A DNA stretch of 64,000 bases from Verrucomicrobiota bacterium (GTDB taxonomy: Bacteria > Verrucomicrobiota > Verrucomicrobiia > Limisphaerales > AAA164-E04): NCBI GenBank assembly GCA_047947115.1, contig CP170459.1:2080001-2144000 (forward strand), read 5' to 3'. The position numbers were made by a program, and so were the translations under genes. Position 1 is the first letter of the stretch. Each line of letters starts with the position of its first letter. The notes beneath the pieces were generated by a model, which had not been told where the DNA came from, ran no database searches, and worked only from the letters and a program-made list of their open reading frames with translations. Positions 16,973-48,321 of the stretch are shown here, one piece after another.

Positions 16973-18391
16973 ATGCAAATGTTTCTTCGTCGACTTTTGG
17001 TGTGCTCTGTTTTGAGCACGGTTCTTTTTGGTTTCAACGTTTTTGGAGCCGCCAAACCCAACTTCATCCTTATCTTTATTGACGACCAGGGGTATGGCGA
17101 TTTGAGCTGTTTTGGTTCAAAAATCATCAAAACACCCAACATCGACAGGCTGGCCACCGAAGGTCGTAAGTTTACGAGTTTTATGGTGGCATCGCCTGTG
17201 TGTACTCCATCTCGTGCTGCTTTGATGACTGCCTGTTACCCGAAGCGCGTTGGGATGCATCAGCATGTGTTGTTTCCTCAGTCCAAGAAAGGATTACATC
17301 CTGAAGAGCACACCATTGCAGATCATTTGAAATCTCAGGGGTATGCCACGGCATGTTTCGGTAAATGGCATCTCGGGCACCACCCGGAAGTGTTGCCGAC
17401 TTCGAACGGGTTCGATACTTACCTGGGCATTCCATACTCGAATGACATGAACCATCCCGACAACAAAGGAAAACCGCAAGGCGGTTGGCAGGGGATGGAT
17501 ATTTTGTGGAATGATCCTGAATCGACTCTAACCAAATGGAAGACTCCTTTGATTGAGGATGGGGAAATTGTCGAGTTGCCCGTTGATCAACGAACGGTGA
17601 CGCGGCGTTATACCCAGAAGGCAATTGATTTCGTAAAAGCTCACAAGGATGAGCCGTTTTTTGTTTATCTGCCCCATACGATGCCGCATATCCCGCTTTA
17701 TGTTCCCGACGATGTGCGTGATCCGGACCCTAAAAATGCTTACATCAACACGATCGAACATATTGACAGCGAAGTTGGGCGCTTGCTGGATGTGGTGGAT
17801 GATTTGAAACTGACCGAGAACACCTATGTTATTTACACCACGGACAACGGTCCCTGGTTGCAGTTCAAGCATCATGGTGGTTCCGCCGGACCGCTGCGTG
17901 CGGGCAAGGGAACGACTTTCGAAGGCGGACAGCGTGTGCCTTGTTTAGTGCGGGGACCGGGTATACCCGCTGGAACCTTGTGCGACGAATTGACAGGAAC
18001 GATTGATGTGCTTCCCACTATTGCCGCCCTTACTGGTAAGCCATTGCCATCCGATAGAAAAATTGATGGCATCGACGTTTCCGGACTTTGGAATGGAACC
18101 CTGAATCGCTCGCCGCGCACTGAATTCATTCACTACACATCGGTTGGCAATCTGGAAGGACTCAGGCAGGGAGATTGGAAAATTCTGGTCAAGAAACCGC
18201 GTAACCAAAACAATCAGCAAGGTGGCCCGAATCCGACTCAGATCATGTTGTTTAATCTAAGAGACGATGTAGGTGAACAAAACAATCTTGCCAGTCAATA
18301 TCCCGATCTCGTGAGGATACTCACCCAACGCATGGAAGCTTTGGATCAGGAAATCACCACGAATGCCCGCGCTCCTTGGGTCACTGAATAG
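16973..18391 (+). CDS. Formylglycine-dependent (S1) sulfatase, secreted
   Basis: Signal peptide from ATG 16973; KPNFILIFIDDQGYGD, CTPSRAALMT, GKWHLG and TDNG motifs. Confidence 0.93.
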   Translation: MQMFLRRLLVCSVLSTVLFGFNVFGAAKPNFILIFIDDQGYGDLSCFGSKIIKTPNIDRLATEGRKFTSFMVASPVCTPSRAALMTACYPKRVGMHQHVLFPQSKKGLHPEEHTIADHLKSQGYATACFGKWHLGHHPEVLPTSNGFDTYLGIPYSNDMNHPDNKGKPQGGWQGMDILWNDPESTLTKWKTPLIEDGEIVELPVDQRTVTRRYTQKAIDFVKAHKDEPFFVYLPHTMPHIPLYVPDDVRDPDPKNAYINTIEHIDSEVGRLLDVVDDLKLTENTYVIYTTDNGPWLQFKHHGGSAGPLRAGKGTTFEGGQRVPCLVRGPGIPAGTLCDELTGTIDVLPTIAALTGKPLPSDRKIDGIDVSGLWNGTLNRSPRTEFIHYTSVGNLEGLRQGDWKILVKKPRNQNNQQGGPNPTQIMLFNLRDDVGEQNNLASQYPDLVRILTQRMEALDQEITTNARAPWVTE

Positions 18392-18579
18392 GCCCTCGGA
18401 CTTCATTTGCAGAAGCTGATTGTTGCCATTTCTATTTGCCAGCCTTTCAGTTGTCTTTTTTGGTGGGGAAGTGTCGTGATTATTCCATCGGTTGAAAGTT
18501 TGCAATGGCCTTGAACGATGGGGTGATGACGGAATTTCGATAAAATGGTGGATTGATCCATCCATAAATAGATTGACTT

Positions 18580-21500
18580 TTGGTAAGGTTTTGTAAATCA
18601 TTGGCCAACCAGTTATCAGTGACACGTTCGTCTTACAGCCTGGAGGCGTTGGAGCCTCGTGTGCTTCTTTCTGGGGATGGGCTTTCTGTTTTATCAGAGA
18701 GTCACGCGTCTTCTGGAGTCGAAGAAGATTTGTTCTGCGCTTCGGAGTCGTGTGAATTGATCCAGAATGAAACACAGGATGAAGTGACCGAATGGTTGAT
18801 TGACGGAGATCTTGATGCATTAGATTCTCTGTTCAACCAGGAGGGTACTTCGCAGGAGGACTGTATCTTCGCCGAAGAAAGTGACGCAGCGGGTGAGGCT
18901 GCAGTGAGCGGTCCACTTGAAGATGCTTCAGACGGTGAAACTGAGGAGCAGGGTGATGCTCCAACTTCCGATATTTCCAATTTTATTCCCGCTTCAGATA
19001 TCCTTTCCGAAACATCGCTTTTGGTGACGGATCAGCCGGGAGATTTCGATTTATTTTGCTATTGTTCACGTCTGGTTGAGACGTTGAATGTGGGCAATGC
19101 CCCCCCTGCTGGTGAAACCTGTTTGCCTGGCGAAAGCGCGAGGCACGATTTGCCATACCATGTTGCATCTCAAACGGTCGACCAGGTCTCTGGTTTGTTC
19201 GTCTCTTTAACGCCAGAGCAGGCAGAGTCTGTTCTGGACTTGTCTATGAGTCCGCAAGGTTATGTGGCTCAAGTCGTTGATGCTTATGGTAAGCTTGTGG
19301 CCGAGCCGACAGAACTGTCGGTCGATGCGACGGTTGTCATCACGGGCAGTGACGACCTCGACGATACTCTTACCATCCGATTGCCGGAAGTGCACGCGGA
19401 TGGATGGCTTGCCATTGCTTTTGAAGGCGGAGATGCAGGGTTTGATTCATTGGTTCTGGAAGGGCCGGACGGTGTGCTTGTTCAGTACGTTGCTGCAGGT
19501 CCTGATTCCGGTTCCATTCAAGGTGAAGGGTGGGAGATTCATTACACCGGACTTGAGCCCATTACCGACAACAGTGATGTGGCCGACCGGTTGTTCACCG
19601 CGACCGGCTCGGATGATATCATTCGCTTGAAGGACGCCGATGAACCTGGATTCATGACCATTGAAAGTGACAATGGTTCTTTTGAGAGTATCAGCTTTCC
19701 TAATCCAACTTCCTCCCTGACCATCGATGCCGGCGGAGGAAATGACCAGATCATTATTGAAAGTTTGGATCCGGCCTTTGTCGCGGGAGCAAGTGGTTCG
19801 GCTGATCCGGAATTGCATCTTCAAGGTGGCGCTGGCACGGACACCGTTTTTGTAAGTTATCCGGCGGACCTGATTCTCACCGATGCTTCCTTGGATGGTG
19901 GAAGTGATTTCAATTTGATTTTTGATGATGTTCCCGATCAAGTCGTGGTTTCGGGCGGAGCGATTGACGCTTCGGCTTTTTCCGGCGTGGCTGTGGTGGT
20001 ACCGGGTGTGCCGGATTGGCAGGACGAGGGCCCCGGGCTGATTCATTCGGATCTCACAAAAGATGCTCCTTTCCCTGAATCAGGTGCAGTTGAAGCGATC
20101 GCAGTACATCCGGGAAACGATCAAATCCTTTTTGCCGCGAGTGTAAACGGTGGCGTTTGGCGGACTGAGAATGGAGGGCAGACCTGGACGGCGATGACCG
20201 ATGAACTGCCATCACTGTCCTTTACGTCCATTGCCATACATTCCCATGATGCGGATGGTAACTTGGTGGATGCTTCCACGCCTGTTGGCAAATTGATTGT
20301 TTTTGCTGGAACAGGTCAACGAAGCGCCAATCACGAAGGTGGATTGGCGATCGGTTTGCTGCGTTCTCAGGATGGAGGAGATACCTGGGAATTGGTGGGT
20401 GTGCCGGATATGACCGGTTTGCCGCTCAGCGCCATTGTGGCAAAACGCATTTCCGGGCAGGACATTGTGCTTGTTGCAGCTGAAGGAAAAACGGTCAGAG
20501 AATCCAGCAAAGTGGAAATGCTTGGTTCACCGGATTTGACCTTCAGCGACCAGGGTGCATCATCGGATACCATCACGCGATCCGCTGGCAGCTGGATAGA
20601 TGATGGTTTTGCATCCGGTCACGAGATTGAGGTAGATGGTACCACCCGAAATGATGCGACATACAAGATTGCTTCCGTCACTGCGACCGTAATGACCTTG
20701 GAGGCCGACTCAATTCTGGTGGATGAAGCCAGTGTCAGCGGAGTAAAGGTCATCACTTCCTTGAAGGTCAAGTTGTTGAAAGAGGGAGGTGTTTTTCGTA
20801 GTGTGGATGGAGGGGATACATTTACCCAGATTCAGCCCATTGACCCTGCCGCGCAATTTTTCCCTCTGGACGAGCGCCATTTTCCGACCGGATCTGTGAC
20901 AGATCTGGCCATTGATCCTGGGGCGGAAGAACGCATCTATGCCGGTGTTCGAGGCGGCGGGGTCTATCGTTCCGATGACGCCGGAGCTACTTGGACCGCC
21001 GTGAATACGGGGTTAACCCTGGCAACCGATGACTGGGACAATGACGGAAACGGCTATGTCGATGATGCTGATGAAACGGCAGTAGGGGTGCAACGTATCT
21101 TATTAGCGGTCCAGGCAGATGATGCATCGGCGACAAACGAGGTCTATGCTGCATTGGTTGGTGGGAATGATCATTTCATAGGGATATTCAAATCCGACGA
21201 TCAGGGGGCTAATTGGTCTTTGCTCGGAGAAGCTCCCGGACGTCCCGAATTTGAATTGAGTTTTCCTGTCACATCGAATGCCGGGCTCATCGACTTCCTC
21301 GATAACAATCCCGCTCAGGATACGGTTGTGCGATCGACTGGCAGTTGGATTCGGGATGGCTTCCAAGCGGGGGATTACATTGAAATAACCGGATCTGCTG
21401 CAAGCGATGGGGTTCATTTGGTGGCTTCCGTCAGTCATGACACATTGACGATGGATGCGGGTGTTGCCCTGGATACCGAAGTTTATTTGCGCAGTATCAA

Positions 21501-24500: not shown

Positions 24501-27500
24501 GATTGAACGTCGTGCAAGCAATGCCTCATTGCTGGACATCTACGTCAATAGCAATTCACCTGTTTATACACTACCTGCTAGTGCCGTTTCCAAAATCACC
24601 GTGGAAGGTAATGATGGAAATGATACGCTCACCTTGGACAGCACGCATGGACCGCTTTCTTTCCCGGGGGATGCTTCCGATCCTTCTAATCCCGAAGGGA
24701 TCTTTTTCAACGGAGGTGGCGGTACCAATCAATTGGTTCTGGAAGGTGGAAAAAGTCACAGCCTCACCCAGGCGAGCGATGCAGGTGTCACAACTCTGAC
24801 CATTCAGGATATTCGGGCAAATCAGCAAGCGATGTTTGCGTTTGAAAATGCCACGCTCGACAACAATCTCGTGCCGGCATCCGATCTGGAAATCTTTTAT
24901 CATGTGATGACTGAGATCTTTTTCGGTTATTCGCATTGGATGGGGTCAAATGATTCGTTGAGTGGTGATGGGATGATGGATGAATTGGCCTTGATTGGTT
25001 ACTCGCTGCCACGCGTCTTGAACGGATCTCAAACAAACGATCTTGATCCGGTCGGTGATCCGGTCGAGGAGGCTACTGAAATGGTTCAGAGCGGATCAGT
25101 TCGGTCAACTTCGGGACTGGAACGCCTGATTGAATCGGGTGAAAACGGATTTAGCCTCTCTGAAATTGGTGACACAATCCTGACCCTTGATGCTTTACGG
25201 GCCCGTCTGGATGATCTGGATGACGTGGCTGGGAATGTTGTGTTGGATGAAATCACCGATCGTGATGGTGACAGTTTGGCTGACGCCATTTTGACCATCC
25301 AAATACAGCGCACCTTGAATGGACAGGCAGCTTTGGAATTGCAGACTGAATACGGGGTAGGCGAGATTGATATCTCAGGGGACATGCATGTATCGGTCGA
25401 TGTGGTGCTGGACTTGGTGGTTGGTATTGAGACGACCGATGGGGTTTTCATTGAGACGCTGGGTGGAGCATCCGGCCTTAGTGTAAGTGGACTTGAACTT
25501 GAAGGCTCTTTGGAGGGAACCGGTCGATTGGGCTTCCTGGAGGTCTATCTTGAGGAATCCCGGCTTGTGGTCGATCCCGCATTGACCTTCGGAATCACGC
25601 TGTTGGATCCTTCTGGCGGGGATGAGATTCGTTTTGATGAATTGATGGCGTTGTTATCCGATCCCTCATCCTTGAGCGATCTGGCCGAGTTTGCCATTAC
25701 GGGATCTGCTTCTGATGACCTGGAGTTCAGTGCTGTCGTTCATGCTGCGGCCATTCTTCCCGGATTGGATGATCCATTCGATCTGGGGGATGCGGAGATG
25801 ACAGCGACATGGAGTGAGATTACCGATATTGATTCTGTGGCAATCAGCTTCAGCGTGGGGGCTGGTGAGGACTTGATTGGGTTTTTGGAAGTGACCGCGC
25901 AACGAGTGGTTGAGGCGTTGGAAACCGTTCAGAATACCCTTGAACAATTCAGTGTCGATATCCCGGAAATCGATCAAACCCTCGACGATCTCCTGCGGTT
26001 TGTGGATGGATTTGAAGACACTATTCTTTCTCCACTCCGTGAACCTGTGCATGGATCCGTATCGACAGCGACGATTCAGGATATGATTCGTTCCTGGAAC
26101 CGCGGATTGAACGAAGAACTGGAAACGGTAGGGCTTCACTTCGATGCCGACGAACTTGAGTTGACCTATGATTTCGAATACAGCCATTTCTTCGGTCGCG
26201 ACGGTGATGCCCTGGACCTTTCCTTTGATCTGGGCGGGGCGGGATCGTCCCTTGGTATGGATGCCGAAGTGTCTGTCGAGGGGACGGTGGGATTGCAAAC
26301 TACTTTGGGTCTCGACCTGGGGGCTTTGATCGGTGGTGGAGATTTTGATGACATTTTCTTTTTACAGGACACCTTGTTTGAAGGGGAATTGAATCTGAGC
26401 TTCACTGAACTGGATACGGACCTGACGGCGGGTTCGCAAACATTCAATCTTGAAGATGGTGAGCTGGTGTTGGGAGTGAGCCTGACCATTGATCCATCCG
26501 GTGCGGACGATAATGCTGACAATAAGCTGAGCCTGACTGAATTGACTTCCGCTTCCTTGGAAGATCTGGTTGATCTGGACGCTACAGGTACACTGGATGC
26601 AACGCTTCCTTTCAATGCCGATCTGAGCCTTGATTTGTTGAACGGAGCCGGGCTGGCGACGGAAGGGGATTATGTCATTACCTTGCATACGGATGATTTG
26701 TTCGGATCGGATCCCATGGACGTGACGGTCAGTCTGGATGGCAGTGTGACGGTGTTGGGACAGACGCTTGAGGGGCTCTTTACTTTCCAATCCACCACCA
26801 TGGAAGGCGAATCGGTTACTATTCTTTCGGGTGATCCGTTTACGCTGACTTTGTTTGAAGGCGCAGGGGGTGGTACCGCCCTGGTCTCTGCAATGGGTAG
26901 CGGTCACTTCGTGGTAACCGACGACGGAGTGGCAGGCGAAGCCGAGGCTGCCCTTGTGGTTGGAGTGGCCGGTTTTGCCAACCTGACAGGTGATTTTGAG
27001 GTTAGGGTCAATACCACCGAATCAGACTTCGATGCTACCTTTACGGTGGGGGGCGATTCGGTGACACTGGATCTGCCTGAAGGCCCTTACCTGCGCGTTG
27101 CGGGCGAGGATGTGAGTGTCGACTTGAGCATCGGTTCCTTCACCCAAACCGTCAGCGGCGATTTTGCTTTCGAACAAACGGGCGATGGCGATAACCGGCA
27201 AGTGGTCCTCGGGTTGAACAACGTTTCCATGACCATGGAAGCCGGCGCTTTGACCCTGGAAGCAAATGATGGTTCAGGCGCGTTCCTGCTTCAGTCAGCA
27301 GGTGTGGCAGGTGAGGCGACGATCGGAGAAGTCATTTTGAACGGCGTTCCTGGTGTTACTTTGAATGTGGTGGATCTGGCCATTCGCGTGAACAACACCG
27401 GTATGGACATCAACGACGGTGAAGCCGAACCCGGCCCGCTTACCATCGAGGTCGGCGGGGAAACCCTTTCGTTTGAATTCAGCGGTGCTTACGAGCAGGA

Positions 27501-39500: not shown

Positions 39501-41961
39501 GAGCGATTCGATCCTGATGCGTGCCACGGGTGAGATTGATGCTTTGGACGGTATTGAAGTGGCTCATCTGGAAGGTGGTCCCAATCGGTCTAATACCTTT
39601 GATCTCACGGGATGGAGCGGTTCCGGAAGCGTGCATGGTATGGATGACACCGATCCATCCAGTCTGCCACCTGCCTATCCCGACCGCTTGATCATGAGCG
39701 CCGATGCTGATTTTGTGCTGACCGATACGGACCTGACCATCACCGATGGCAGTGGATCGCGGGTGATTGAATTGACGGATATCGGAACCGTGACGCTCAT
39801 TGGCGGTCCCAGCGGCAACGTTATGGATGCTTCGGCTTTCACTGGGAATGTGACCCTCATGGGTGCCGGGGGCGATGATGTGTTGATCGGCGGTGAAGGG
39901 GCCGATGTTCTTCAGGGGGATGAAGGTAATGATACCTTGTCTGGTGGTCGTGGTTCAGATCGGCTTGATGGCGGTGAAGGTCAGGATGCCGTTGTGGAAG
40001 ATCTGGGCGGTCTGCCAGGTGAATACCGGGTGTCGCTTTCGGATCAGTTGCTGGGGGTTGACGAGACAAGTTCGGTGACACTTCCTGATTTGCCCTTGAG
40101 CGAGTCAGATCTCATGACCTCTGTTGAGAGTGTGGAAATCACCGGAAGCCCGCAATCGGATCAATTTGATATTACGGAATGGACCTTGGGTGAACTTACA
40201 TTGGATGGCGCCGGTGGAAATGACACGATATTGGCTAACGGTTATGATCGAGTATTTGACGATGAGAGTGGAGAAGTAATTGAAGCTGGTGACGACATGA
40301 TAGTGTTGACCGATACCGAATTGACGCGGACAGCGCGATCCGGTGTGTCGATGACCTCCATGGAATCGGCAATCCTGTTTGGCTTGGGTGGTGAAGATGT
40401 GTTTGACGCTTCGGGGTTCACCGGGCGTGTGTTGTTGGTGGGGGGATCGGAATCCGATCAGTTTATTCCCGGTCAAGGTGTTTCCATCCTCGCTGGCGAT
40501 GATCCGACCGATGCCGATGTGCGTTCGGGGGATGACCGATTTGTGTTCCTGGAGGATGGCACTGGTGATTCGGTCGTGGTTCAGGGTGGCGATGGGGAAG
40601 ATACGCTGGATTTTTCCGCATTCACCAGCGGCGTCTCTGTTGACCTTTCAATGTTGGGCGTCCTTCAGGTGGTCTTGGCCGGTGAGATGAGCCTGCGGAT
40701 ACAGTTGGATGATTTGGAGACCGTGATCGGCGGTTCGGGAAATGATGTCCTGATCGGAAATGACAGGGTTAATCGATTCACCGGCGGGGCCGGAGATGAT
40801 TTGATCAATGGTGCGGGCAATGTGGATTACATCATCGAAGAGGCCGATACGGATTTTGTGCTTACCGATGCGAGTCTGCAGATCGGTGGAGATACTGATG
40901 TTCTGCTGAATATCGAATTTGCAGAACTGAGAGGGGGCGCAGGGGCAAATGTCATCGATGCCTCTGCCTTCACCGGTAATACGGAACTAAGTGGCGAAGG
41001 CGGTTCCGATATCCTGTTGGGCGGAAGTGGAGCGGATCTCATGGAAGGCGGGGCCGGAGATGATACCCTGATGGGCGGAAACGGTGGAGATTTCTATGTG
41101 TTCGATGTGGATGAAGTCCTTGGAAGCGATACAGTGAATGACGCTGGCGCGACCGGAACCGATTGGTTTGATTTCCGTGACACCGAGGAAGAGTCAATAA
41201 ACCTGAATCTGGAGGTGGGCACACACGTGGTGCACGCTTCTCACCTCACTTTGACCCTCCAGGCTGGTACAGTGATTGAAGCTGTGTTTGACGGGAAGCA
41301 GGATGATGTGTTGATTGGTAATGGAGCGGACAATATCTTTGGCGTAGGAGAAGGTAACAATCTGATAGACGGTGCCGGAGGCACTTCCAATCAAGTGGTC
41401 GTCTTGCGTGATGTTGACCAAACCCTGCAGGATGACAGTCTTGAGATCGGGGATGCCATAAATGTCCTGAGTGGTATCCAGACGGCATTGTTGGCGGGTG
41501 GCGCATCCGCAAATGTCTTGAATGCTTCCGGTTTTACTTTGGGGCCGGTCAGTTTGTATGGATTGGGTGGAACGGATGTGCTGTGGGGAGGTTCCGGAAA
41601 CGACGAACTATATGGAGGGCCAGGGAATGACCTTTTGATGGGCGAGGCGGGGGATGATTTGTTGGTGGGTGGTCTAGGAGACGACGTGCTGGATGGCGGT
41701 GGTTATGATCCATCGGGCGTTGGGACAGACGATGACACGCTTCGCGGAGAACAGGGGAACGATACTTATTTCTTTGATGCTTCACTTCAATTGGGAACCG
41801 ATACAGTTTTCGAACTGCCTGGTCAGGGATATGCCGATCTTTTATACGGAGCCGGGTTGAGTGGCGTGGACCTGGATCTCTTTGATCATACCCCTCAAAC
41901 CATGAGTGATCACCTCACGCTGATACTTGTGATTCCCGGCACGGTGGAGGATGCTTATTAA
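18580..41961 (+). CDS. Giant (about 7,790 aa) LEPR-XLL extracellular Ca-binding protein / putative adhesin
   Basis: Uninterrupted 23.4-kb ORF with N-terminal LEALEPRVLLSGD, BNR/Asp-box blades (SxDGGxTW), many GGxGxD RTX nonapeptides, Calx-beta repeats (e.g. GTLEFAPGETS) and SdrD-B-like modules (e.g. GAVWYDNNKN). Very D/E-rich. Start uncertain (TTG 18580, TTG 18601 or GTG 18619). Confidence 0.9.
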   Translation: MVRFCKSLANQLSVTRSSYSLEALEPRVLLSGDGLSVLSESHASSGVEEDLFCASESCELIQNETQDEVTEWLIDGDLDALDSLFNQEGTSQEDCIFAEESDAAGEAAVSGPLEDASDGETEEQGDAPTSDISNFIPASDILSETSLLVTDQPGDFDLFCYCSRLVETLNVGNAPPAGETCLPGESARHDLPYHVASQTVDQVSGLFVSLTPEQAESVLDLSMSPQGYVAQVVDAYGKLVAEPTELSVDATVVITGSDDLDDTLTIRLPEVHADGWLAIAFEGGDAGFDSLVLEGPDGVLVQYVAAGPDSGSIQGEGWEIHYTGLEPITDNSDVADRLFTATGSDDIIRLKDADEPGFMTIESDNGSFESISFPNPTSSLTIDAGGGNDQIIIESLDPAFVAGASGSADPELHLQGGAGTDTVFVSYPADLILTDASLDGGSDFNLIFDDVPDQVVVSGGAIDASAFSGVAVVVPGVPDWQDEGPGLIHSDLTKDAPFPESGAVEAIAVHPGNDQILFAASVNGGVWRTENGGQTWTAMTDELPSLSFTSIAIHSHDADGNLVDASTPVGKLIVFAGTGQRSANHEGGLAIGLLRSQDGGDTWELVGVPDMTGLPLSAIVAKRISGQDIVLVAAEGKTVRESSKVEMLGSPDLTFSDQGASSDTITRSAGSWIDDGFASGHEIEVDGTTRNDATYKIASVTATVMTLEADSILVDEASVSGVKVITSLKVKLLKEGGVFRSVDGGDTFTQIQPIDPAAQFFPLDERHFPTGSVTDLAIDPGAEERIYAGVRGGGVYRSDDAGATWTAVNTGLTLATDDWDNDGNGYVDDADETAVGVQRILLAVQADDASATNEVYAALVGGNDHFIGIFKSDDQGANWSLLGEAPGRPEFELSFPVTSNAGLIDFLDNNPAQDTVVRSTGSWIRDGFQAGDYIEITGSAASDGVHLVASVSHDTLTMDAGVALDTEVYLRSIKGAPELTFADANPDTITRSVGSWVEDGIVKGHEIKISDTTGNNGTYTVTGVTPLVLTLSGSDSLTAETIQTAVEIKASATEYDGPGTLQPQIHRGSQGELHFSVTADADGNIYLGGDRPAHIFRWDQTTSQWDHITKQNATGTRSHADSRVLILDGAGQLLDGDDGGVYRLLNPGDNATVTMTGSPRVTFVDANPDQVQRSAGSWITDGFVAGQRIGVTGSFSLYGNDGVYTIASVTASTLTLVASDQLQSEGPRSGVTVVSYPALAGNPNLTFADASPDTITRSAGSWVSDGFAVGHHIEVSGSSSNDGIYTISELTATLLKVTAADSLAAEGPVNGIHVWQNREWKSLNASLGATEILSMSYDPVSNVFFAGTQDNGVIEQPFPADGVDNDGDGIVDEPDERFRWSVVLDGRGLPPGDGNITAVALLDLDDDGQIDEVRRYTMSNNLVSFTQRLFDENGALIPGTNQLVGLASPVSQTVNFTVNIGSDQLTINDHGLVTGDGPFKVDVSGGGSLPAELSTDALYWAIRVSDNAIQLAANQQDALDGSQINLTTDGSGTRQLTKPFLSFGNAAIDDPTDQITIPNHGLATGAGPFRLVTSRGSDFGSGLYPYIDYYVIRVDNDTIQLARSKALANAGTDYSIKDNGSGAFQLVSRLSGLNGNDAAKYTSGFRELAYAVNQVDDTRMLLGLNSVYASVNIGSDATPYYDGLGTVQRLFTHPSSGQFTSLVYGGSKNGVENPDVVYASSWSRIYIQVANAMTGNPNLVFADNGASEDTITRSSGDWEADGFAPGQVITISGSSNNDHSYTVQAVTPTVLTVTSGDSLTAEGPVNQVAVSRFSRETTPGSETINGLVLDPDDYDIAYAISDANVYQRTGPGKWEIISTELSSLSLKSIEFAQVGGTDILLVGGVNGLFRAIDPQPGVTWTEVGRGLPNTLLRDTDYISRDPADAPNPHNLSREDILLVATQGRGAWLTLSPDVYLDEMTEIHIVGDGGNDEIKIERRASNASLLDIYVNSNSPVYTLPASAVSKITVEGNDGNDTLTLDSTHGPLSFPGDASDPSNPEGIFFNGGGGTNQLVLEGGKSHSLTQASDAGVTTLTIQDIRANQQAMFAFENATLDNNLVPASDLEIFYHVMTEIFFGYSHWMGSNDSLSGDGMMDELALIGYSLPRVLNGSQTNDLDPVGDPVEEATEMVQSGSVRSTSGLERLIESGENGFSLSEIGDTILTLDALRARLDDLDDVAGNVVLDEITDRDGDSLADAILTIQIQRTLNGQAALELQTEYGVGEIDISGDMHVSVDVVLDLVVGIETTDGVFIETLGGASGLSVSGLELEGSLEGTGRLGFLEVYLEESRLVVDPALTFGITLLDPSGGDEIRFDELMALLSDPSSLSDLAEFAITGSASDDLEFSAVVHAAAILPGLDDPFDLGDAEMTATWSEITDIDSVAISFSVGAGEDLIGFLEVTAQRVVEALETVQNTLEQFSVDIPEIDQTLDDLLRFVDGFEDTILSPLREPVHGSVSTATIQDMIRSWNRGLNEELETVGLHFDADELELTYDFEYSHFFGRDGDALDLSFDLGGAGSSLGMDAEVSVEGTVGLQTTLGLDLGALIGGGDFDDIFFLQDTLFEGELNLSFTELDTDLTAGSQTFNLEDGELVLGVSLTIDPSGADDNADNKLSLTELTSASLEDLVDLDATGTLDATLPFNADLSLDLLNGAGLATEGDYVITLHTDDLFGSDPMDVTVSLDGSVTVLGQTLEGLFTFQSTTMEGESVTILSGDPFTLTLFEGAGGGTALVSAMGSGHFVVTDDGVAGEAEAALVVGVAGFANLTGDFEVRVNTTESDFDATFTVGGDSVTLDLPEGPYLRVAGEDVSVDLSIGSFTQTVSGDFAFEQTGDGDNRQVVLGLNNVSMTMEAGALTLEANDGSGAFLLQSAGVAGEATIGEVILNGVPGVTLNVVDLAIRVNNTGMDINDGEAEPGPLTIEVGGETLSFEFSGAYEQDYLSVSGGAEMVLADFITLYGNFTIERSELDTNADTIVEDVIKVGVESLNFTLSAGSFEVLSFSDGTGAFVFTDEGVAGTADMQFELGIIGLSGDIDMELNTLSRAIEASVPVASGAVAFNFTDTEFLRVCVTNAFLNLGSTSIPIPGDLLVDVDTGSGSVDVVDKTSGTVLVSVASDGTISTGLSFDDFAISGPFEFISLLRQLLIWFNEMSESEAFNVEIPFTDNTLGEALDWTQLFLDEIYSNMISVELQSGEDIDGMIADEGDGIVDLVDVNFMLQVDDETPVEVTVNGSFSSIENASDPFDASTLVGLFNNAFLAAGAGLSSQVVARKHEETEPGVDRFVIALLPEAIAKLSSLKLVELDEDMEGLGFGPSDGNYGDEDGSEANPYTTEQTAIETHRYTTEQFFVALGDLLGIPVTYNPAQLVYTYTVDKEATYETTVPFNFSGDLGDLGGVAVEGLVRIEATVGFEFTLGFDLGADEVPRILTSTFVPTPANGRISEDANFDIFFNDDLAAVSFSGANALTAASTADNTSINDLADDLNDLFATVDYNGSPVSDWLVAQKAGNGLAISVRQEHLGVINRLSTRSNIDDTFATEMGFGIEVLDLDGNEVTENDRYFVSTSQSGMKGLFLDDVSLSASLAAYTETDTGTYPDANPDGLTGSLQFGFVELSTSEGAFGTLEYDGTTPTEIGIDLGLENSGSGESRFYLADLFQSLTSTSFGDMVNGPDFSGSFLARLQGLSVNGFDIGDLAGSDPEISVWIPDINDLEYNEDPYDGTNTGVFVTYPNLGHLQNFQNFSFAQLINALRVLVDNLSELSAFGFLDKKIPVIDASVNDLLDYAAKFAELVEEAANQPAGSLQAAITELESQIESLFNLDPSILTVSIDTNGITPDQLVLSGGDGSNPAGTTLDPEGDNNGLVIESASNGTGDNGISIRLVGDSSVSGNDANVEWDSVQRVLTLGIRGGETTAATLRDAINALSGTPFFASLPGGEDGSGTLRTTALKFGFDFTAAYGNLLPLQLDLNALVNQLAGDSGAAAFLDAATTLIQVEGSGSLEVSASASLILDFGIDVTNPTSPEVFFYDTTGISLLAKVLGRDISIETSLGSVIGIYIEDGEVTIDQDGDPDTDAGDDDRGVEFGLTLNDTNGDSRIYFSENWFTTDIIDISLNGGLSVSLPIFAPVEGLPLGGTGDQNEDGHPDNELYIEISDFAGLFSGEDVVTIIAPDLNNLIQNVDFCAVLENAGLLINGLDQLLGSIEEGLQDLVASNSLPMLGDGFSDAANFISSFRNGLLASIQAELDAAGGSAVTVVENALKQAFWETLGPEGLDLLVDPDSGEALDPSLGYHQLAVMLDCEAGLVVDLRLRKTVALVDTSENPIDFDIGVPGFGLEVNGNVSVAIGFDLKFGFGLNKEDGFYFDSSAGADDPELRVFFEASIPGLSATGSLAFLQLDVGDDPDDPSSFVGQFVVDLKDPNHDGKLTFAEMSSSGVQFSDIFDPGLEAVADVNLDLSASFGGNAAFPRVVAEFHLDWLWDLEEGMQSPEIVLSDIALDLGTFISDFLEPILNEIRKVTEPLDPIIEIATARLPVLSDLAGQTVTLLDLAELYGVLEPSTVRFIETALKVVDIINNLPTGNGSVLIPFGSFRLGEDENGNRNQIQTLDALGSTDFAGMVNNAAATDTSATYMNQVSGFASDVDSLDNFSIPIFKNPAELFNLFIGEPVRLIEWRMPTFEFNFTYTQKIAIYPPLYAHFGGSIGATIDIGFGYDTFGIQKYIAAEDKNVLDLFDGFYVLDFDENGNEQPELELRGEIFAGASIDLLVAEAGVTGGIYALIQFDLNDVNDDGKVRISEIVANAQIDPRCIFDIHGEMGLFLEAFLSVDLFFFSIDKTWRFAEITLFEFDITCPEPVLASKDGSGVLTLHMGSDAEDREEIDTSDSAETFIVTHLDGDELSETVEVQWGNYKQTYEEVTKILVVNAGAGNDLIDLRGVLVPAEVHGGVGNDTIYLSDGMGAVVYGDEGNDTIVASSAASATGVTLYGGDGNDVFTPGTVSITIYGDGGADIIPGSPEGDFLYGGAGEDTILGAGGDDYLEGGDGKDTLEGSAGSDLLYGGLGTDVLRGGRDDDLLDGGEDEDVLYGGSGNDLLIGGEDADKAYGHGGIDLLIGDNVATIFGAAPSRDTLPLLADIPTSGLQVTGLTGLGNDFLIGGGNVDVLFGGDGDDFLYGGNMFANGETEIIEEDHNDFFDGGAGDDVIFGDDAMGRTGDRDTGIEIRGAVWYDNNKNDVWDDEEVGFGSITVELRKQSDDSLIATEVSGSDGSFVFKGLDPNNYYLVASKPADLDYLVSDPAHDGEASYVDSDFIDAAGRTATFALDYDEVETSIAIGYVGDPLLSIGDISVEEGDSGVINATFTITLSGPQLYVATVDYETVDTTTTAKEADGDFEFTSGTLEFAPGETSLQVVVPVLGDLTYEDHEQFVLQLSNPSAGIVLPAVPSATATIVNNDPIPQISISDFNPIPIDYEDADETRPIYDEDQDAEFIISLSNPSHNTIEVSWTTDVAITSRGLAVNDAATPFGLPDGDFIPASGTVIFEPGETRQTITVEVLDDDGYDTDGDPATVVLDEAAETFHVNLSNAKFAFISDDRGVGIIEDDDDPVSVSIAPNSPYDPDGAGPMTPLPFETHVVEGNSGSQYVEFEVTLSERSSLPVTVQYSTSPGTAVGSVYSKQSKAIKDLPDYEPTPQEDKTDHELELLFAPGEVSKTFTVEVYGDNRIESDEDFFVNLLSAHNADIATDPTTENNHVTVVIENDDSMVSVDYGPYSIWFSDQMYVVDEPDAGSEDAEITVIRADGSSYAIAVLTAFDISATSGADYDPVFRTLLVFEPGENSKTVLIPVHADDLSEGDEEVLLLLQDPTGDVVNGEPYASTLVIRDGDTPQLSIEPPVFASLPWGIDIPGIKENGVPPHEFTVKLSADAPPGGVTVYYETVAISAREGTDFIADSGWIVIPEGQDEFPLEVVIVDDAIAEPNERFAVRLSQASGADLAVEDSVAVAIIFDDDGIEVSGVVFYDANANGFQDYNERGINDVDVTISWYEDGAEQTATVQTQTVGGVQGVFTRDVFLGQVAIAVDGTSVTSPYKGFGILGSGSYETTTDNESQAVEFLGAEGISPFEPVGYDTSSRFDTPVETDDVGRGGTDDTIFGGPGDDTIDAGAGDDHVVGGHWMTATDGNAAVNLGDYDADLLVVTDPAGDPDTLHNVYDEGPIFEIDLGSLPAGGSISGQIWEDVNDSDTQDGADNLFAEEVIVHLFDDLGNAVNSMVTTDGEYTFDYLALKEGGDPSGYIVAFELPQGWTFVVPEIGGDDTADSDVLAGNRTLVVDISEGLPDVANVDAGVKPSDAIPASNSGGFEFGEVAYTVGQEEGFVTIEVVRGNSTKQAAVIYRTHDGSAEAGTHYDSVTGILVFEVGETYRSFDVPVHDTGLGISETVEFALTLHEPTGRPLDETLVYIYGDGQGTLTDDDTIQGGDDWDIILGDSGAIPAEVVMADPASLLTIITRGGPGKDNIDGGNGPDYIDSQLDDDLVAGSEGQDVVYAGLGDDEVWAELDDDDLNGQHGEDTIVSVRDVVRIELSPDFLVHYGNSEGTGPALSTFTLNDSFEIARLSAGATDNVFVFTDWEGSVFVDASGGEDSLHVTFDSDMTLTDVVLAYPWNAIFNQMHGFFKDGAISLPDDQTYHLGSVENVKLTGGASANHLDASGYSRKAILEGAGGDDVLEGGSNDDVFVFDADDPLGVDTVMGNGGTDWLDFSSTSASVTVDLSVLLVDQSVNGNLNLILDDEIEAVIGGENDDELIGNFLDNILLGGPGDDILAGGLGDETYAFDTDEAWGNETIIENAGEGHDVIDFSDTSTLNVVFDLSNTAAQAVNANLTLSVQDSGGGVGEIEGIIGGDLDDVLSGNNEDNTLVGGPGVDTLNGAGGDDVLDGGTGNDVLSGGEGTDTIHESEDTHFYLSDSILMRATGEIDALDGIEVAHLEGGPNRSNTFDLTGWSGSGSVHGMDDTDPSSLPPAYPDRLIMSADADFVLTDTDLTITDGSGSRVIELTDIGTVTLIGGPSGNVMDASAFTGNVTLMGAGGDDVLIGGEGADVLQGDEGNDTLSGGRGSDRLDGGEGQDAVVEDLGGLPGEYRVSLSDQLLGVDETSSVTLPDLPLSESDLMTSVESVEITGSPQSDQFDITEWTLGELTLDGAGGNDTILANGYDRVFDDESGEVIEAGDDMIVLTDTELTRTARSGVSMTSMESAILFGLGGEDVFDASGFTGRVLLVGGSESDQFIPGQGVSILAGDDPTDADVRSGDDRFVFLEDGTGDSVVVQGGDGEDTLDFSAFTSGVSVDLSMLGVLQVVLAGEMSLRIQLDDLETVIGGSGNDVLIGNDRVNRFTGGAGDDLINGAGNVDYIIEEADTDFVLTDASLQIGGDTDVLLNIEFAELRGGAGANVIDASAFTGNTELSGEGGSDILLGGSGADLMEGGAGDDTLMGGNGGDFYVFDVDEVLGSDTVNDAGATGTDWFDFRDTEEESINLNLEVGTHVVHASHLTLTLQAGTVIEAVFDGKQDDVLIGNGADNIFGVGEGNNLIDGAGGTSNQVVVLRDVDQTLQDDSLEIGDAINVLSGIQTALLAGGASANVLNASGFTLGPVSLYGLGGTDVLWGGSGNDELYGGPGNDLLMGEAGDDLLVGGLGDDVLDGGGYDPSGVGTDDDTLRGEQGNDTYFFDASLQLGTDTVFELPGQGYADLLYGAGLSGVDLDLFDHTPQTMSDHLTLILVIPGTVEDAY
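20512..23997 (+). repeat. Six dispersed copies of a ~75-aa 'TFxDxxxDTITRSxGSWxxDGF' module within the giant protein
   Basis: Copies start near 20512, 21290, 21500, 22042, 22294 and 23776. DNA at 22480-22509 and 23968-23997 matches at 27 of 30 positions. Confidence 0.85.
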
Positions 41962-42064
41962 TGAAGAGGAAAGATAACAACGATCAATCAAGGTTTGCCG
42001 TCTTTCAAACAACAGAAACATCGGTTCTGAGGCGATATTCGCATCGAACTCGGAGGATCGAATT

Positions 42065-45000
42065 ATGATGCTATTTGGAAAAAAACCGGAGTGGTTTCCT
42101 GTCTGCTCAGGGGTTGCTCGACTCATTCTTTCAACATTGTTATGCGCCTTGGTGGTGTGCGTCGCCAAGGCTCAGACCGCAGCGCCGCCAGTTTCCATCG
42201 TGGATGGTTTTGCAGCCAAAGACAACAGCACCGTTTTGGATGAAGATGGGGAACTGCCCGCCTATATTATTTTACGCAACAACCGCTCTCAAACAACAGC
42301 ACCGATGGATTTGAGCGGTTATGCGTTGACCAGTGACAGCACGGGAAATGCTGTCTGGATCATTCCTCCACGCACTCTGATCGCGCCCCAGTCGGAATTG
42401 ATCGTATTTGCTTCCGGCAAGAATCGTCCATCCAGCAATCCTGAATTGAGAAATCACACCGATTTCATATTCTCCTGTGAAATTCCCTACGTTGCGCTAT
42501 TGGGCCCCAAGCGGGAGGTTGTTTCCACATTCCGTAAACTAGATCCCAATTGCAGCGGAAATGATGATGATTGCCGGGGGACGCCTCTGTTCCACGATAA
42601 AACCATCGGTCGCTACTTTGTGCCCAGTACCGACAAAATGACCGGTATCTGGATGGAACCTGACTTTGATGTCTCAAACTGGAAGCGTGGTCCACTTGGT
42701 CTGGGTTACGAAGTGCTGGAATCCAAGGGAGAACTGGACATGATCCTTTACGCGACCATGGATCGCACGGATCTGGATTTGGTGGCGAACATCGTCAAGG
42801 ATGTCAGCGGGTCGCCCGTCGTGCATGATGGCCTGGCATCACAAAAAATCGCCATGACAACCGGGCAGATTCAACAAGGGATCAACATGGCGCAAGGTCA
42901 GGCCATTCGTTTTCGTCACCATGACGAACTGGATCCCGTAACCAGCGATTTCACAGTGTCCATCTGGTGTCGCACTTTAGGGCAGGGAGATGAAGTGATC
43001 ATTGCCAAAGGTGGATTGAACAACGAAACCACGGGTTGGGCGATTTTCAATCGTAAGGATGCCACCATCGTGCGATTGAACTATGGAAAGGCGGGCATCG
43101 TGGATTTGACGCTGCCACGACTGGAGGTGGAGCGTTGGACACATCTTGCGTTTGTTATTGATCGGACTCAGAAAGCAGCTTTCGCGTACGTCAATGGAGT
43201 CGTGGCCGCGAATGCCGGTATACCGGCTGATGCCTTGCTCGCGCCTCGAACGGATATGTGGATTGGGGCACGTCCCGACGGGAATCCTCTTTTCACCGGC
43301 ACGGTTGATGAAACCGTCATTTGGCGGCGTGCACTTTCCAAGGGAGAGATTCGCACGGTCGCCGCACTGGGAGCGAGTGGAAAACGACTGGATACGGCCG
43401 TTTCGACTGGCACGCCGATTTATGTGGATCTCATTTCAACTGATGTGGAAACGGATATGTATGGAAAGGGTTCCAGTTTGTATGTGCGCATTCCGTTTTT
43501 GGTGAACGACCCGAACCTTGTGAGTGGATTGAACCTTTCCATGCATTACGATGATGGTTTTGTCTGCTATCTGAACGGCGTGGAAGTAGCCCGGAAAAAC
43601 GCCCCGTCCACTACCTTCCCAGGGTACGATGCCACGGCTTCGAGCGATCGAGCGGATACGTTGGCTTTGACGGCGGAATCGATCAATCTGGCCAATGCCA
43701 TCCGTTATCTGATTCCCGGGGAAAACCTCTTGGCGATTCATGGGTTGAATGTTTCGAAGGATGCGGGTCGTTTTGTGATCAAGCCACAACTTTGCCTGGA
43801 AGAAAGCGAACCTCAAGATTGCGAGAAGACCACCAACGGGCGTGACTTCTGGTTGACCTTTCCCGGCAACGCTCCTGAAGACACAGGCAATCCGCTTCAG
43901 ATCAGTTTGTGTGTGGCAGGCCTTGCGGGAACCACCGGACGTGTTGACGTCCCGGGTCTCGGTTTTTCGAAGAATTTTACGATACCGGCAAACGGTCCCA
44001 CACCTGCCACGGGTAGCCTGATGTTGCCTTTGCCCCGGGAGGTTTCTCTGGAGGTCTCAGGAAAAATTGAATCCAAGGGAGTGAGGGTGCGTGCACAGTC
44101 GGATGTGAGTGTTTACGGCACGACACGTATCGATTATTCCACCGATTCCTTCCTTGGTTTGCCGGTCGATTGCCTTGGTAGAAATTATGTGACCATGGGC
44201 TATAAAAATGTATGGGAAGATATTCCTGTGCTGAACGGATCGCAGATTGGTCTGGTGGCGCCCTACAACGGGACCAAGGTGCTGATTGATGTCGGGACAA
44301 GCGCTTCCGGCGGCGTTCCGGTCGAGGTGACATTGAATGAAGGGGAGACGTACCTGTTGCGCGATACCGGCAACAGTCCGGCTGACTTGAGTGGTTCCCG
44401 CATTTTATCCAATTTACCGGTCGGTGTGTTTGCTGGTCATCGTTGTGCGAATATCAATGGCAAGGATTTGTTCTTCTGCGATACGGTGCTTGAGCAACTG
44501 CTGCCCATCTCCGGTTGGGGAACACGTTACTGGAATGCCCCGCTCAGTACCCGCAACCATCTGCTTGGCGATGGCAAGGGTGACACGCTTCGAGTGACTG
44601 CTTCCGAAGATAACACGGCGGTGACCATCACCGATGATCAGGGAGCGAATGTTTTGGTCCTGAACGCCAATCAGATCCATGAACAATCGGTCATTGGACC
44701 CAGCTATGTTATCTCCGAGAAACCTGTTTTGACGGCGGTTTATGCGAATAGTTCCGATTTTGATCTCGTAACCGATTCAGATCCGTTCATGGTGATGTTG
44801 CAGCCTGAAATTCATTGGCTGGATCGCTACATTATTTGCACACCTCCCTCCAGTGATTTTGAACAGAGCTACGTCAATATCATTGCGCGGAATATCACAG
44901 AAGCATCCACCATTCGGCTTAACGGCGCCCCAATCGCGGGATTTCTGCCTCTTGGCGCCAGTGGCTATTTTTATGCGCAGGTCGATTTGGATCCGGCTTT

Positions 45001-46876
45001 GTTGCGGCATACGATTACATCGACCCGTGCCGTATTTGGGGTGACGGTTTACGGCTTCAGTGAGTATGATTCCTACGGCTATCCCGGGGGAATGCGCTTT
45101 GACTCCGCCGGAGCCCCTTTTGTTGTATGCCCTCCTGACGTCACTATCCCGGCAGGTGAGAATTGCGAGGGAGTCATTCCTGATTTGAGTGAATTCATTC
45201 AGGTTGTGGATCCATGTGATGAAGGAGGCGATCGGCCGGTTCCCGGCGATGATTGCTTCGAATTTGAAGATCTTAAACTCCAAACCCTCATCCGTGATGG
45301 CGACACATTGACGATCATCAGTGCATCGGGGAATCAAACCGCCAATGTAACGGCATCGGCTGCGGGATTTGCCGCTGTGGCTGCCGTGGTCAATGGGGGA
45401 CAAGCCGGACATACGGGGAATGAGGTGCGCTTTGCCAACATCAATTTGACCTTCGTTTCTTCGGCTCTCACCTCAGGGTTTTCACTTTCATTCGGCGAAT
45501 ATGGTGGGTCCGTGAACCTGGGGGTGAACAATGATCTTCAGACCGCCGCCAATATGGAGGATTTCAATGGCAAGACGATTGGGGGAGCACAGGTTGCTGT
45601 AACAGGTGCGACGGGCGGACAGGGGACGGGGACGCTGACTGTCACTGGAACCATCCGCAGTTTTACCATCGGTGGCCAGGAGTTTTTTATTGATCATATC
45701 TGCCCTGGAGGCGGAGGGACGGTTGAAGTGCCGGATTGTTATGAGTTCGAAGATCAGGATGCCAAACTGGTTCTACGTGTGGGAGACACAACACCCGCAA
45801 CCAGTAGCACAGGAAACTCGGTCACCGTTTTGGGCGCTCCTTTCACATGGTCCAATGGACAGGTGACTCAGGAGGGATCTGCCGCCATTCGAACCAATGG
45901 TCAAGCCGGGCACACGGGCAACGAGTTTGCCGTGAACAATATTCTGTTGAAATTCATCCCAACCGAGTCGTTTCCAAACGGTGTCTCCATACTGTTCGGC
46001 GAATACGGCGGCAATGTGAACCTGGAGGTTAACGGCGAATTGGCCAATGTCAGCAATTTCAGTGAACTGAGCGGCACCTCTCTGGGCGGGGCGCACATTC
46101 TCGTTACCGGTGGGACGGGTCAGGGATTGGGTGAATTGCACATCATTGGCGAGTTGAAGGAATTCGGGATTGGTGGTCAGGAATTGTTCATCGATCACCT
46201 TTGCCTGCTTCCAGCAAGAGCAGTGACGGTAGTGGATCGTATCACGACGAACCTTGGTTCTTTGACTCGATCCTTGGTGAAGCAGGCTGGTGTGGGGCAA
46301 AATTATATCGTCAAGCAAGATCCCCCTGCGGGTTTGATGGTCTCGGCAGGATCTTATGACGTCAGTGTGAGTGTGGTCGACCTGCAGGGAAACTCGATTG
46401 GAACATGCGTGACCCAAGTCAAGATTGTTGACGATTCGCCCGTCAAAATCGTCTGTCCTCCCAATATAACGGTCAACTGCCAACGTCCTGAAGGAGCATT
46501 GGTTTTTTGGGAGGGCCCAGTTGCCTACACCGAGCGATGCCAAATGCCCGTGGAGGTGAGGTGCAACTATGAACCCGGTGAATTGTTTCCGTTGGGTAAT
46601 ACCACCGTCACCTGCGTGGCCAAGAGTCCGTCCGGTGAAGTGGCTACATGTTCGTTTTTGGTGACGGTTGTCTGTGAAGATGTCGTCGTGCCAGATAATC
46701 CCACCGTCTCGATCAATCTTTCAGATGGGACCGGCATTACACTGGATTGGCCGGCAGGAGGCTATTTGGAAGCCGCCGACAGTCCGCTGGGCCCTTGGGA
46801 AATCGTCCCCGAAGCCAGGCCTCCATTCAACATCAGTACCACTCGGAAGCAGGCATTTTATCGGATTCGTTATTAG
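42065..46876 (+). CDS. 1,603-aa secreted multidomain protein: lamin-tail-like, LamG, IgGFc-binding N-terminal, HYR-like, C-terminal FYR domain
   Basis: Signal peptide ending VAKAQ; lamin-tail-like DEDGE...DLSGYALT...LIVFASGKNR; LamG WTHLAFV...FTGTVDE; IgGFc-binding GRDFWLTF...EQLLP...YGYPGG; HYR CPPNITV...FPLGNTTVTC. Confidence 0.85.
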   Translation: MMLFGKKPEWFPVCSGVARLILSTLLCALVVCVAKAQTAAPPVSIVDGFAAKDNSTVLDEDGELPAYIILRNNRSQTTAPMDLSGYALTSDSTGNAVWIIPPRTLIAPQSELIVFASGKNRPSSNPELRNHTDFIFSCEIPYVALLGPKREVVSTFRKLDPNCSGNDDDCRGTPLFHDKTIGRYFVPSTDKMTGIWMEPDFDVSNWKRGPLGLGYEVLESKGELDMILYATMDRTDLDLVANIVKDVSGSPVVHDGLASQKIAMTTGQIQQGINMAQGQAIRFRHHDELDPVTSDFTVSIWCRTLGQGDEVIIAKGGLNNETTGWAIFNRKDATIVRLNYGKAGIVDLTLPRLEVERWTHLAFVIDRTQKAAFAYVNGVVAANAGIPADALLAPRTDMWIGARPDGNPLFTGTVDETVIWRRALSKGEIRTVAALGASGKRLDTAVSTGTPIYVDLISTDVETDMYGKGSSLYVRIPFLVNDPNLVSGLNLSMHYDDGFVCYLNGVEVARKNAPSTTFPGYDATASSDRADTLALTAESINLANAIRYLIPGENLLAIHGLNVSKDAGRFVIKPQLCLEESEPQDCEKTTNGRDFWLTFPGNAPEDTGNPLQISLCVAGLAGTTGRVDVPGLGFSKNFTIPANGPTPATGSLMLPLPREVSLEVSGKIESKGVRVRAQSDVSVYGTTRIDYSTDSFLGLPVDCLGRNYVTMGYKNVWEDIPVLNGSQIGLVAPYNGTKVLIDVGTSASGGVPVEVTLNEGETYLLRDTGNSPADLSGSRILSNLPVGVFAGHRCANINGKDLFFCDTVLEQLLPISGWGTRYWNAPLSTRNHLLGDGKGDTLRVTASEDNTAVTITDDQGANVLVLNANQIHEQSVIGPSYVISEKPVLTAVYANSSDFDLVTDSDPFMVMLQPEIHWLDRYIICTPPSSDFEQSYVNIIARNITEASTIRLNGAPIAGFLPLGASGYFYAQVDLDPALLRHTITSTRAVFGVTVYGFSEYDSYGYPGGMRFDSAGAPFVVCPPDVTIPAGENCEGVIPDLSEFIQVVDPCDEGGDRPVPGDDCFEFEDLKLQTLIRDGDTLTIISASGNQTANVTASAAGFAAVAAVVNGGQAGHTGNEVRFANINLTFVSSALTSGFSLSFGEYGGSVNLGVNNDLQTAANMEDFNGKTIGGAQVAVTGATGGQGTGTLTVTGTIRSFTIGGQEFFIDHICPGGGGTVEVPDCYEFEDQDAKLVLRVGDTTPATSSTGNSVTVLGAPFTWSNGQVTQEGSAAIRTNGQAGHTGNEFAVNNILLKFIPTESFPNGVSILFGEYGGNVNLEVNGELANVSNFSELSGTSLGGAHILVTGGTGQGLGELHIIGELKEFGIGGQELFIDHLCLLPARAVTVVDRITTNLGSLTRSLVKQAGVGQNYIVKQDPPAGLMVSAGSYDVSVSVVDLQGNSIGTCVTQVKIVDDSPVKIVCPPNITVNCQRPEGALVFWEGPVAYTERCQMPVEVRCNYEPGELFPLGNTTVTCVAKSPSGEVATCSFLVTVVCEDVVVPDNPTVSINLSDGTGITLDWPAGGYLEAADSPLGPWEIVPEARPPFNISTTRKQAFYRIRY

Positions 46877-47935: not shown

Positions 47936-47948
47936 CATTTTTTATTCG

Positions 47949-47990
47949 AAAACCACCCTGTTCGATTTGAAATCGTGCAGGGTGGTTTTT
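47949..47990 (+). terminator. Rho-independent terminator, possibly bidirectional
   Basis: AAAACCACCCTG...CAGGGTGGTTTT stem with inner CGATTT/AAATCG pairing, followed by a T-rich tract, 14 nt after the stop. Confidence 0.8.
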
Positions 47991-48022
47991 ATTTCTTTGG
48001 TTGCGTCACGTGGGATTGGGTT

Positions 48023-48103
48023 GCCCCTACAGGGCTCGTTATGTGGGGTGTGCGGGGTTCCCAGGGCGATGCCGTGGGCTGACATGGTTTGGACCTTTGG
48101 GCG
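48023..48103 (+). repeat. Three-hairpin REP-like unit A
   Basis: GCCCCTACAGGGCTCGT...CCAGGGCGATGCCGTGGGCTGA...GACCTTTGGGC; direct repeat of unit C. Confidence 0.8.
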
Positions 48104-48311: not shown

Positions 48312-48321
48312 GCCCCAAGAA

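Follow-up and report, generated by a model that had tools for sequence, protein, structure and literature searches.

A Conserved Gene Pair for a Giant LEPR-XLL Protein and an IgGFc-Binding Companion in Verrucomicrobiota: A Possible Two-Part Surface Attachment Device

Results

Gene Organization of the Locus

The window analysed in this study was a stretch of 64,000 nucleotides from a Verrucomicrobiota genome (GCA_047947115.1, contig CP170459.1, positions 2,080,001 to 2,144,000), which is called G000 here. The giant gene (18580..41961, + strand) starts with TTG and encodes a protein of 7,793 aa (~819 kDa, pI 4.05). The companion gene (42065..46876, +) encodes 1,603 aa with a Sec-like signal, a variable LTD/LamG part, an IgGFc unit, HYR, and an FYR tail. 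The spacer between them (41962..42064, +) is 103 nt long. A first-pass annotation made from the sequence alone had described two co-oriented open reading frames at this distance with no obvious terminator between them. Both frames exist there, and the consensus scan listed no terminator-like site in the spacer. The true start of the giant gene may be GTG at 18619 (7,780 aa), because the TTG lies inside a sigma-70-like site (18573-18601) and the LEPR motif lies about 11-25 aa from the start in most orthologs.

Misassembly of the giant frame, the doubt that the first-pass annotation had raised itself, was ruled out by a collinear relative, by related loci, and by the pattern of codon changes. 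The relative P0004 (7,868 aa) was collinear with giant aa 165-7793 at 43-51% identity. At the DNA level, identity was 89-93% to L009 and L011, which cover window positions 16902-27209, and to L087, which covers 27157-43275. Between the giant and L087, 177 synonymous and 5 amino-acid-changing codons were counted in the core, and 1,209 synonymous and 239 changing codons over giant aa ~2861-7793. The gene is real and under strong purifying selection. L009 and L011 (G001:C53 and G001:C99) are two near-identical copies of the start of the locus, and both break at giant aa 2877; mixed strains in the G001 assembly are a possible source of the duplication.

The neighbouring genes were also investigated. 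A CusA-type RND heavy-metal efflux operon lies at 8063-16116 on the minus strand, with an OEP, an MFP with heavy-metal-binding domains, a 1,336-aa pump, and a methyltransferase; G001 has the same order. An ECF-type sigma factor, with a Pfam match to region 2 only, and an IS200-like transposase follow the pair at 47096-48747. RNA contigs in two runs leave the window sequence near 47530, which suggests strain variation there. The stretch 48936-58385 (+) carries a PSCyt1/PSCyt2/PSD1 and DUF1501 pair and a 1,684-aa PVC-type heme-binding protein, which are typical PVC modules. Elsewhere in the genome, large PKS/NRPS-like frames (2,080-3,165 aa, judged from N-terminal sequence only) were seen at G000:C1:1893382-1931629. 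The sulfatase upstream of the giant gene was rejected as a member of the unit: no sulfatase match was present in any of 32 ortholog loci, for which the upstream DNA was a few kb and sometimes less. The suggested link to sulfated glycans found no support either.

Architecture of the Giant Protein

The LEPR-XLL motif, a candidate export tag, lies at 18637..18687 (+, aa 20-36). The model NF012209 gave 26.4 bits for these residues with a curated cut-off of 17, so the motif named in the first-pass annotation was confirmed. In a genome-wide scan of G000, the giant was the sole LEPR-XLL protein, with 31.3 bits. A second leader motif, L(V/T)ETLxxxN(G/A)PP, follows an acidic spacer at 19069..19110 (+). 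The ETLxxxN(G/A)PP motif was found in most of the verrucomicrobial LEPR giants examined and was absent in three alphaproteobacterial ones. The giant lacks a Sec signal, as first described; hydropathy over 13-aa stretches peaked at 1.0 within its N-terminal 90 aa (a heuristic value, not SignalP). General family scans of aa 1-1000 gave no match to an N-terminal retention-module or LapG-cleavage-site family.

The variable N-terminal module (20017..24459, +) is a BNR/Vps10-like propeller with inserted repeats of ~85 aa. Besides its BNR/Vps10 repeats, it matched 3b7f weakly (E 2e-4). The module was missing in the closest giant orthologs, and weak matches were obtained in a more distant clade. An RTX block and then SdrD_B and Calx-beta repeats occupy 33457..37971 (+), a predicted calcium-stiffened stalk. 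The three repeat types named in the first-pass annotation were all matched by Pfam, and 31 matches to the RTX nonapeptide pattern were counted in the giant. The last part (38077..41961, +) is an RTX-like repeat region whose C-terminal end is conserved. The hydropathy scan found no transmembrane segment in the giant, and the tail-model scan found no FYR tail. Still larger LEPR-tagged open frames, of 20,890 to 28,751 aa, were seen in the same order (G155:C1:958944, G049:C30, G051:C30, and G228:C13).

The conserved core (26647..33279, +, aa ~2690-4900) was the uncharacterised part of the giant, and its most conserved stretch was aa 4301-4900. A domain of ~770 residues in it had no Pfam match, and a PDB sequence query with aa 2101-4900 returned no match. 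A profile search with the core gave 2,044 sequence clusters at E ≤ 1e-30. Among the best 150 of these, 75 carried an LExRxL-type motif within their N-terminal 150 aa, and many of the rest looked fragmentary. Proteins with a Sec-like signal at their start, as judged by eye, also contained the core (P0059 and P0067). The structure model (pLDDT 72, pTM 0.44) predicted long beta-strands in curved sheets with helices. Foldseek returned nothing at E ≤ 0.001 for this model; microsomal triglyceride transfer protein (E 1.6e-3, TM 0.09) was non-significant. VIA-align gave middling Z scores only, with a list filled by a helical hairpin, and its best neighbours were partial outer-membrane barrels (OpcA, Z 8.9, rmsd 2.8, 119 aligned). 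In the ESM Atlas, three unnamed clusters were found at 0.85-0.90, with low recognition.

Architecture of the Companion Protein

Pfam assigned IgGFc_binding (694-997), LamG, HYR, and a weak LTD to the companion; PF17517 scored 195 bits with a cut-off of 25.6. The Sec signal reported at first was upheld by a hydropathy peak of 2.9 over the corresponding N-terminal span (the same heuristic, not SignalP). The invariant part (43814..45094, +) consists of a Cys motif and the IgGFc_binding (FCGBP_N) unit. The unit was modelled at pLDDT 85 and pTM 0.86 as four packed beta-sandwiches. Its sub-domains were closest to TM1070 (Z 8.1, rmsd 3.5, 107 aligned), followed by the Anabaena sensory rhodopsin transducer (Z 6.6). 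A role in binding small ligands, carbohydrates for example, has been proposed for this fold. A PDB sequence search with the C-terminal 1,020 aa of the companion returned no matches.

The IgGFc domain was found in 22 of 22 companions scanned, always well away from the N-terminus. An FYR-like motif ended 25 of 26 companions, and the N-termini varied (GEVED, Ig, NHL, LTD/LamG). Thus the C-terminal FYR domain of the first-pass annotation is present (46682..46873, +), but it is not distinctive. As many as 38 frames of the same genome end in an FYR tail, which rules it out as a pair-specific element; it is therefore a general feature of the exported proteins of this genome. The search model was built by regular expression from 29 tails, including a few from proteins other than companions. 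In both genes, the N-terminal modules were swapped among relatives and the cores were fixed.

IgGFc genes also occur away from the pairs, and at G275:C14 and G090:C3 a second one stands in tandem behind the companion. Further FYR-tail proteins, some of them divergent, lie upstream of the giant at G058:C8, G275:C14, G041:C34, G094:C196, and G206:C53 (L030-L043).

Conservation of the Gene Pair

The giant core and the IgGFc unit of the companion were used as queries against 301 genomes of the same Verrucomicrobiota order, each at least 80% complete. A giant match was accepted at ≥355 bits and a companion match at ≥200 bits, except for the contig-cut G303:C577, which was kept in the synteny count. 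Giant orthologs were found at 49 loci in 41 genomes with 22 family codes. At 39 of the 49 loci, an IgGFc-HYR-FYR companion was encoded on the same strand, 7-13 kb downstream. Of the remaining ten loci, nine stop at a contig edge before the IgGFc unit, and their genomes have an IgGFc match elsewhere. The true exception was G156:C36, a related giant without a companion match. Counted per genome, both genes were present in 40 of the 41 giant carriers; 9 genomes had a companion match and no strong giant match, and 251 had neither gene. The synteny and co-occurrence that the first-pass annotation had put up for checking were borne out, and the pair is a conserved unit.

The spacing was tight. The gap was 97 nt or less in 25 of 26 fetched pairs, and the stop and start codons overlapped in 8. 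In G135 the giant was split in two frames. Paralogous pairs, each intact, were found within single genomes, with three in G275 and two each in G074, G226, G246, and G294. The named relatives were Verrucomicrobiota, including Limisphaera and Pedosphaera, and the named isolate Limisphaera sp. VF-2 (L092) carries both giant and companion. Near-identical DNA was detected in 14 runs, at 0.80-0.92 of the sampled words; 13 of these runs carry the label of an estuary, marsh, or seawater metagenome.

The tree distances of giant and companion were correlated (Mantel rho 0.46, p 0.0004), and the trees were partly incongruent. The G000 companion grouped with the companions of another clade, and the G080 and G208 companions were sisters when their giants were not. 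The incongruence suggests partner exchange and no tight cognate interface. It goes no further than suggestion because the companion's grouping, set against the giant tree in an AU test, was not rejected (p 0.18). Contigs from RNA libraries covered both genes in four studies and bridged the spacer in two. The bridging contigs lend weak support to co-transcription, since contigs cannot prove a single transcript.

Export Route of the Giant

The first-pass annotation had seen no type I secretion (T1SS) ABC exporter in the window, and this was correct; the exporter of the window is the CusA-type RND system. The genome was searched for T1SS and T2SS genes, as it had proposed. Profile searches of G000 found no TIGR01843 MFP over cut-off and no C39-ABC, so a canonical T1SS was not detected. 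When five candidates were scored in each of the 301 genomes, a single genome, not a giant carrier, proved to have a canonical T1SS MFP. An ABC/MFP/TolC triad below the T1SS cut-offs was located at G000:C1:4156930-4161562 (L102). Its ABC protein matched T1SS permease models best, with 170 bits and a cut-off of 693. Its MFP was matched in 22 of the 301 genomes and in 7 (full-length) to 9 of the 41 giant-ortholog genomes. For a T2SS, which might serve the second export step of the companion, several secretins and GspE/PilB-type ATPases were found in G000, with none of the ATPases above the GspE cut-off.

A candidate exporter cassette lies at G000:403590-412168, 1.7 Mb from the giant. It encodes TolC, an MFP, a GAF-MFP, a PqqD-like/M50-MFP, and a short SecA_DEAD protein. 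Its HExxH, NxxPxxxxDG, Walker A, and DEAD motifs are intact; the Pfam scores for M50 and PqqD were below cut-off. DUF3467, which some of the plasmid cassettes contain, gave no match in G000. A 578-aa RTX stub lies behind the cassette between two DDE transposase frames (G000:C1:398215-402875, L001:3216-7876). The stub is 91% identical to the C-terminus of a 9,009-aa LEPR giant that follows the same cassette in G007, and G000 has therefore lost its cassette-linked LEPR giant.

The co-occurrence of LEPR proteins and M50-MFP was investigated in the 301 genomes; 8 genomes in which all M50-MFP matches were weak paralogs (E ≥ 1e-47) were dropped before the counts. Both were present in 74 genomes, LEPR alone in 5, the cassette alone in 13, and neither in 209. 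Of the 79 LEPR-XLL genomes, 74 had the cassette, as did 39 of the 41 giant-ortholog genomes; the giants without a detected cassette were in G026 (82% complete) and G218 (90% complete). The co-occurrence was also seen inside families where both vary (e.g., f1, f8, f13, and f22), although kin are not independent and overstate its significance. Giant orthologs adjoin the cassette at G080:C68, G135:C81, G252:C5, and G261:C609. A LEPR match lay within 12 kb of at least 12 of 87 cassettes, among 150 of 163 matches listed and in fragmented assemblies. In alphaproteobacterial plasmid cassettes, a LEPR giant stood directly upstream in all 5 examined of the 31 records matched. The cassette follows LEPR-XLL proteins far better than any T1SS does. 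The giant is likely exported by this SecA-like/M50/TolC cassette, judging by co-occurrence and adjacency. The two different export routes proposed in the first-pass annotation are most likely, with a giant that lacks a Sec signal and co-occurs with the cassette, and a companion with a Sec-like signal.

Discussion

Comparison with Known Systems

T1SS-exported giant RTX adhesins, such as LapA, MpIBP, and SiiE, are very large and acidic, lack a Sec signal, and carry calcium-binding repeats with an RTX block towards the C-terminus. The giant shares all of these features. Unlike these adhesins, it has a LEPR-XLL tag, a large uncharacterised core, and a variable N-terminal module; no cognate T1SS follows its family, and it has a fixed partner gene with a Sec-exported product. 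By its sequence, the giant is a LEPR-XLL family member that resembles RTX adhesins, but no cognate canonical T1SS was detected in its genome. Two-partner secretion (TpsA/TpsB) was rejected: the companion had no Omp85-type Pfam or NCBIfam match, and the giant has no Sec signal.

Giant exported proteins with the motif RRLxxExLExRxLLA have been described in planctomycetes (PMC8567305), and Cag_663 and Cag_665 of Chlorobium are LEPR-XLL giants (bioRxiv 10.64898/2026.03.19.712371). In the available parts of both accounts, the motif was proposed as an export signal and no machine was assigned. The giant carries the same N-terminal motif (NF012209). Compared with what these parts describe, the Verrucomicrobiota subfamily adds the ETLxxxNGPP motif and the IgGFc partner. 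A locus with a secondary SecA_DEAD, M50-HlyD, GAF-HlyD, and OEP was reported by Kamneva, Poudel and Ward in 2015 (PMC4452313), with no substrate named in the part available. The G000 cassette has all of its genes and no ABC transporter, and here the giant, encoded in trans, is the only LEPR-tagged candidate. Bacterial FCGBP_N/IgGFc_binding proteins (PF17517) are secreted, and their role is described as unclear in the accessible sections of PMC4948705 and PMC11796319. Unlike the usual FCGBP_N proteins of these sections, the companion has its domain at 694-997 of 1,603, before HYR and the FYR tail and not at the N-terminus, and it has a giant neighbour.

No description of the giant-IgGFc pair was found in the literature searched, with subscription journals and supplements outside the search. 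Within that literature, the pair is real, conserved, and undescribed as a unit. To what is known, the present analysis adds the fixed partner, the exchange of N-terminal modules in both proteins, a further leader motif, and a large core family without a name.

Proposed Function of the Pair

The conserved pair is best read as a two-part cell-surface attachment device, with a probability of about 0.45. The giant would leave the cell through the cassette and would likely be held at the surface by the Sec-exported companion, because the giant has no anchor of any kind and the IgGFc-HYR end of the companion adjoins the FYR surface tail. The two genes would very probably be co-transcribed and functionally linked. 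The PqqD-like/M50/MFP protein of the cassette would probably read the LEPR-XLL leader, and the short SecA, substituting for an ABC pump, would drive the giant through TolC. With fair probability, the RTX, Calx-beta, and SdrD repeats would then fold with calcium to form a stalk carrying a swappable binding tip, here the propeller. The companion might travel by Sec and be sorted to the surface by its FYR tail, so that its invariant IgGFc-HYR end could tether the anchorless giant; this step is proposed tentatively. Hints for tethering come from a LEPR giant that itself ends in an FYR-like tail (G023:C161, by eye) and from a LEPR giant whose overlapping downstream neighbour is an FYR protein lacking IgGFc (G034:C34). 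We infer that the two proteins may bind each other physically. Adhesion is the likely purpose, by analogy with what is generally known of RTX, Calx-beta, and LamG proteins. On balance, the device would be used in estuarine water to attach the bacterium to particles, to glycans, or to other cells. A fuller picture is offered as speculation: an appendage assembled outside the cell from two routes, in which a Sec-exported FYR-tail protein uses its FCGBP_N unit to catch and anchor a LEPR megaprotein passing through the SecA-like/M50/TolC cassette, with swappable binding modules at both ends. Several observations speak against the device: few of the cassettes had a listed LEPR match nearby, G026 and G218 have the giant and no detected cassette, G156:C36 lacks a companion match, nine genomes show the companion side alone, and the core is shared with proteins that start with Sec-like signals.

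The two products may instead be co-regulated but physically independent surface or matrix proteins, in one operon for one behaviour; the companion would, for example, bind glycan and the giant build a matrix. Incomplete congruence of the trees and the apparent partner exchange are consistent with independence, as are the extra IgGFc genes away from or beside the pairs and the resemblance of the IgGFc sub-domains to the small beta-sandwiches of TM1070 and the Anabaena transducer. Independent proteins would, however, hardly account for a near-invariant order and tight spacing in 22 family codes, kept even in paralogous pairs, and they would leave the giant without an anchor. This explanation is considered rather unlikely, though a serious one.

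Two further explanations concern the giant itself. Conservation is highest in its core, for which long curved beta-sheets are predicted, with partial outer-membrane barrels such as OpcA and, non-significantly, microsomal triglyceride transfer protein as best neighbours. The giant could accordingly be a released lipid-binding or membrane-attacking protein for nutrient capture or antagonism, with the companion as a chaperone or aiming subunit. The structural scores lie in a range that the tool calls common, however, and the core model has a low pTM; RTX-toxin family models scored far below cut-off on the giant, and only through the RTX repeats. Such a function is improbable. An ordinary RTX adhesin exported C-terminus-first through the ABC/MFP/TolC triad, with LEPR-XLL as a retention or processing element, would fit the nonapeptide matches, the missing Sec signal, the classic RTX C-terminus, and the preference of the ABC protein for T1SS permease models, far below cut-off as that match is. 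The distribution of the triad MFP, present in so few ortholog genomes when the cassette is present in nearly all, and the finding of a canonical T1SS MFP in just one of the 301 genomes, which carries no giant, make this route very improbable.

The attachment device thus remains the preferred reading. With the pair defined, an isolated giant gene becomes a two-gene module, and about one-seventh of the genomes in this order, which is abundant in the environment, contain it. The intact cassette of G000 has a single LEPR-tagged protein left to serve, the giant, which is a clean setting for the question of LEPR-XLL export. The companion gives access to the FCGBP_N domain, described as having an unclear role even in the human mucus protein FCGBP (PMC11796319). 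If the two-route appendage is true, roles would be given at once to the LEPR-XLL tag, the bacterial FCGBP_N domain, and the FYR tail, and a domain family of ~770 residues without a known fold would be defined.
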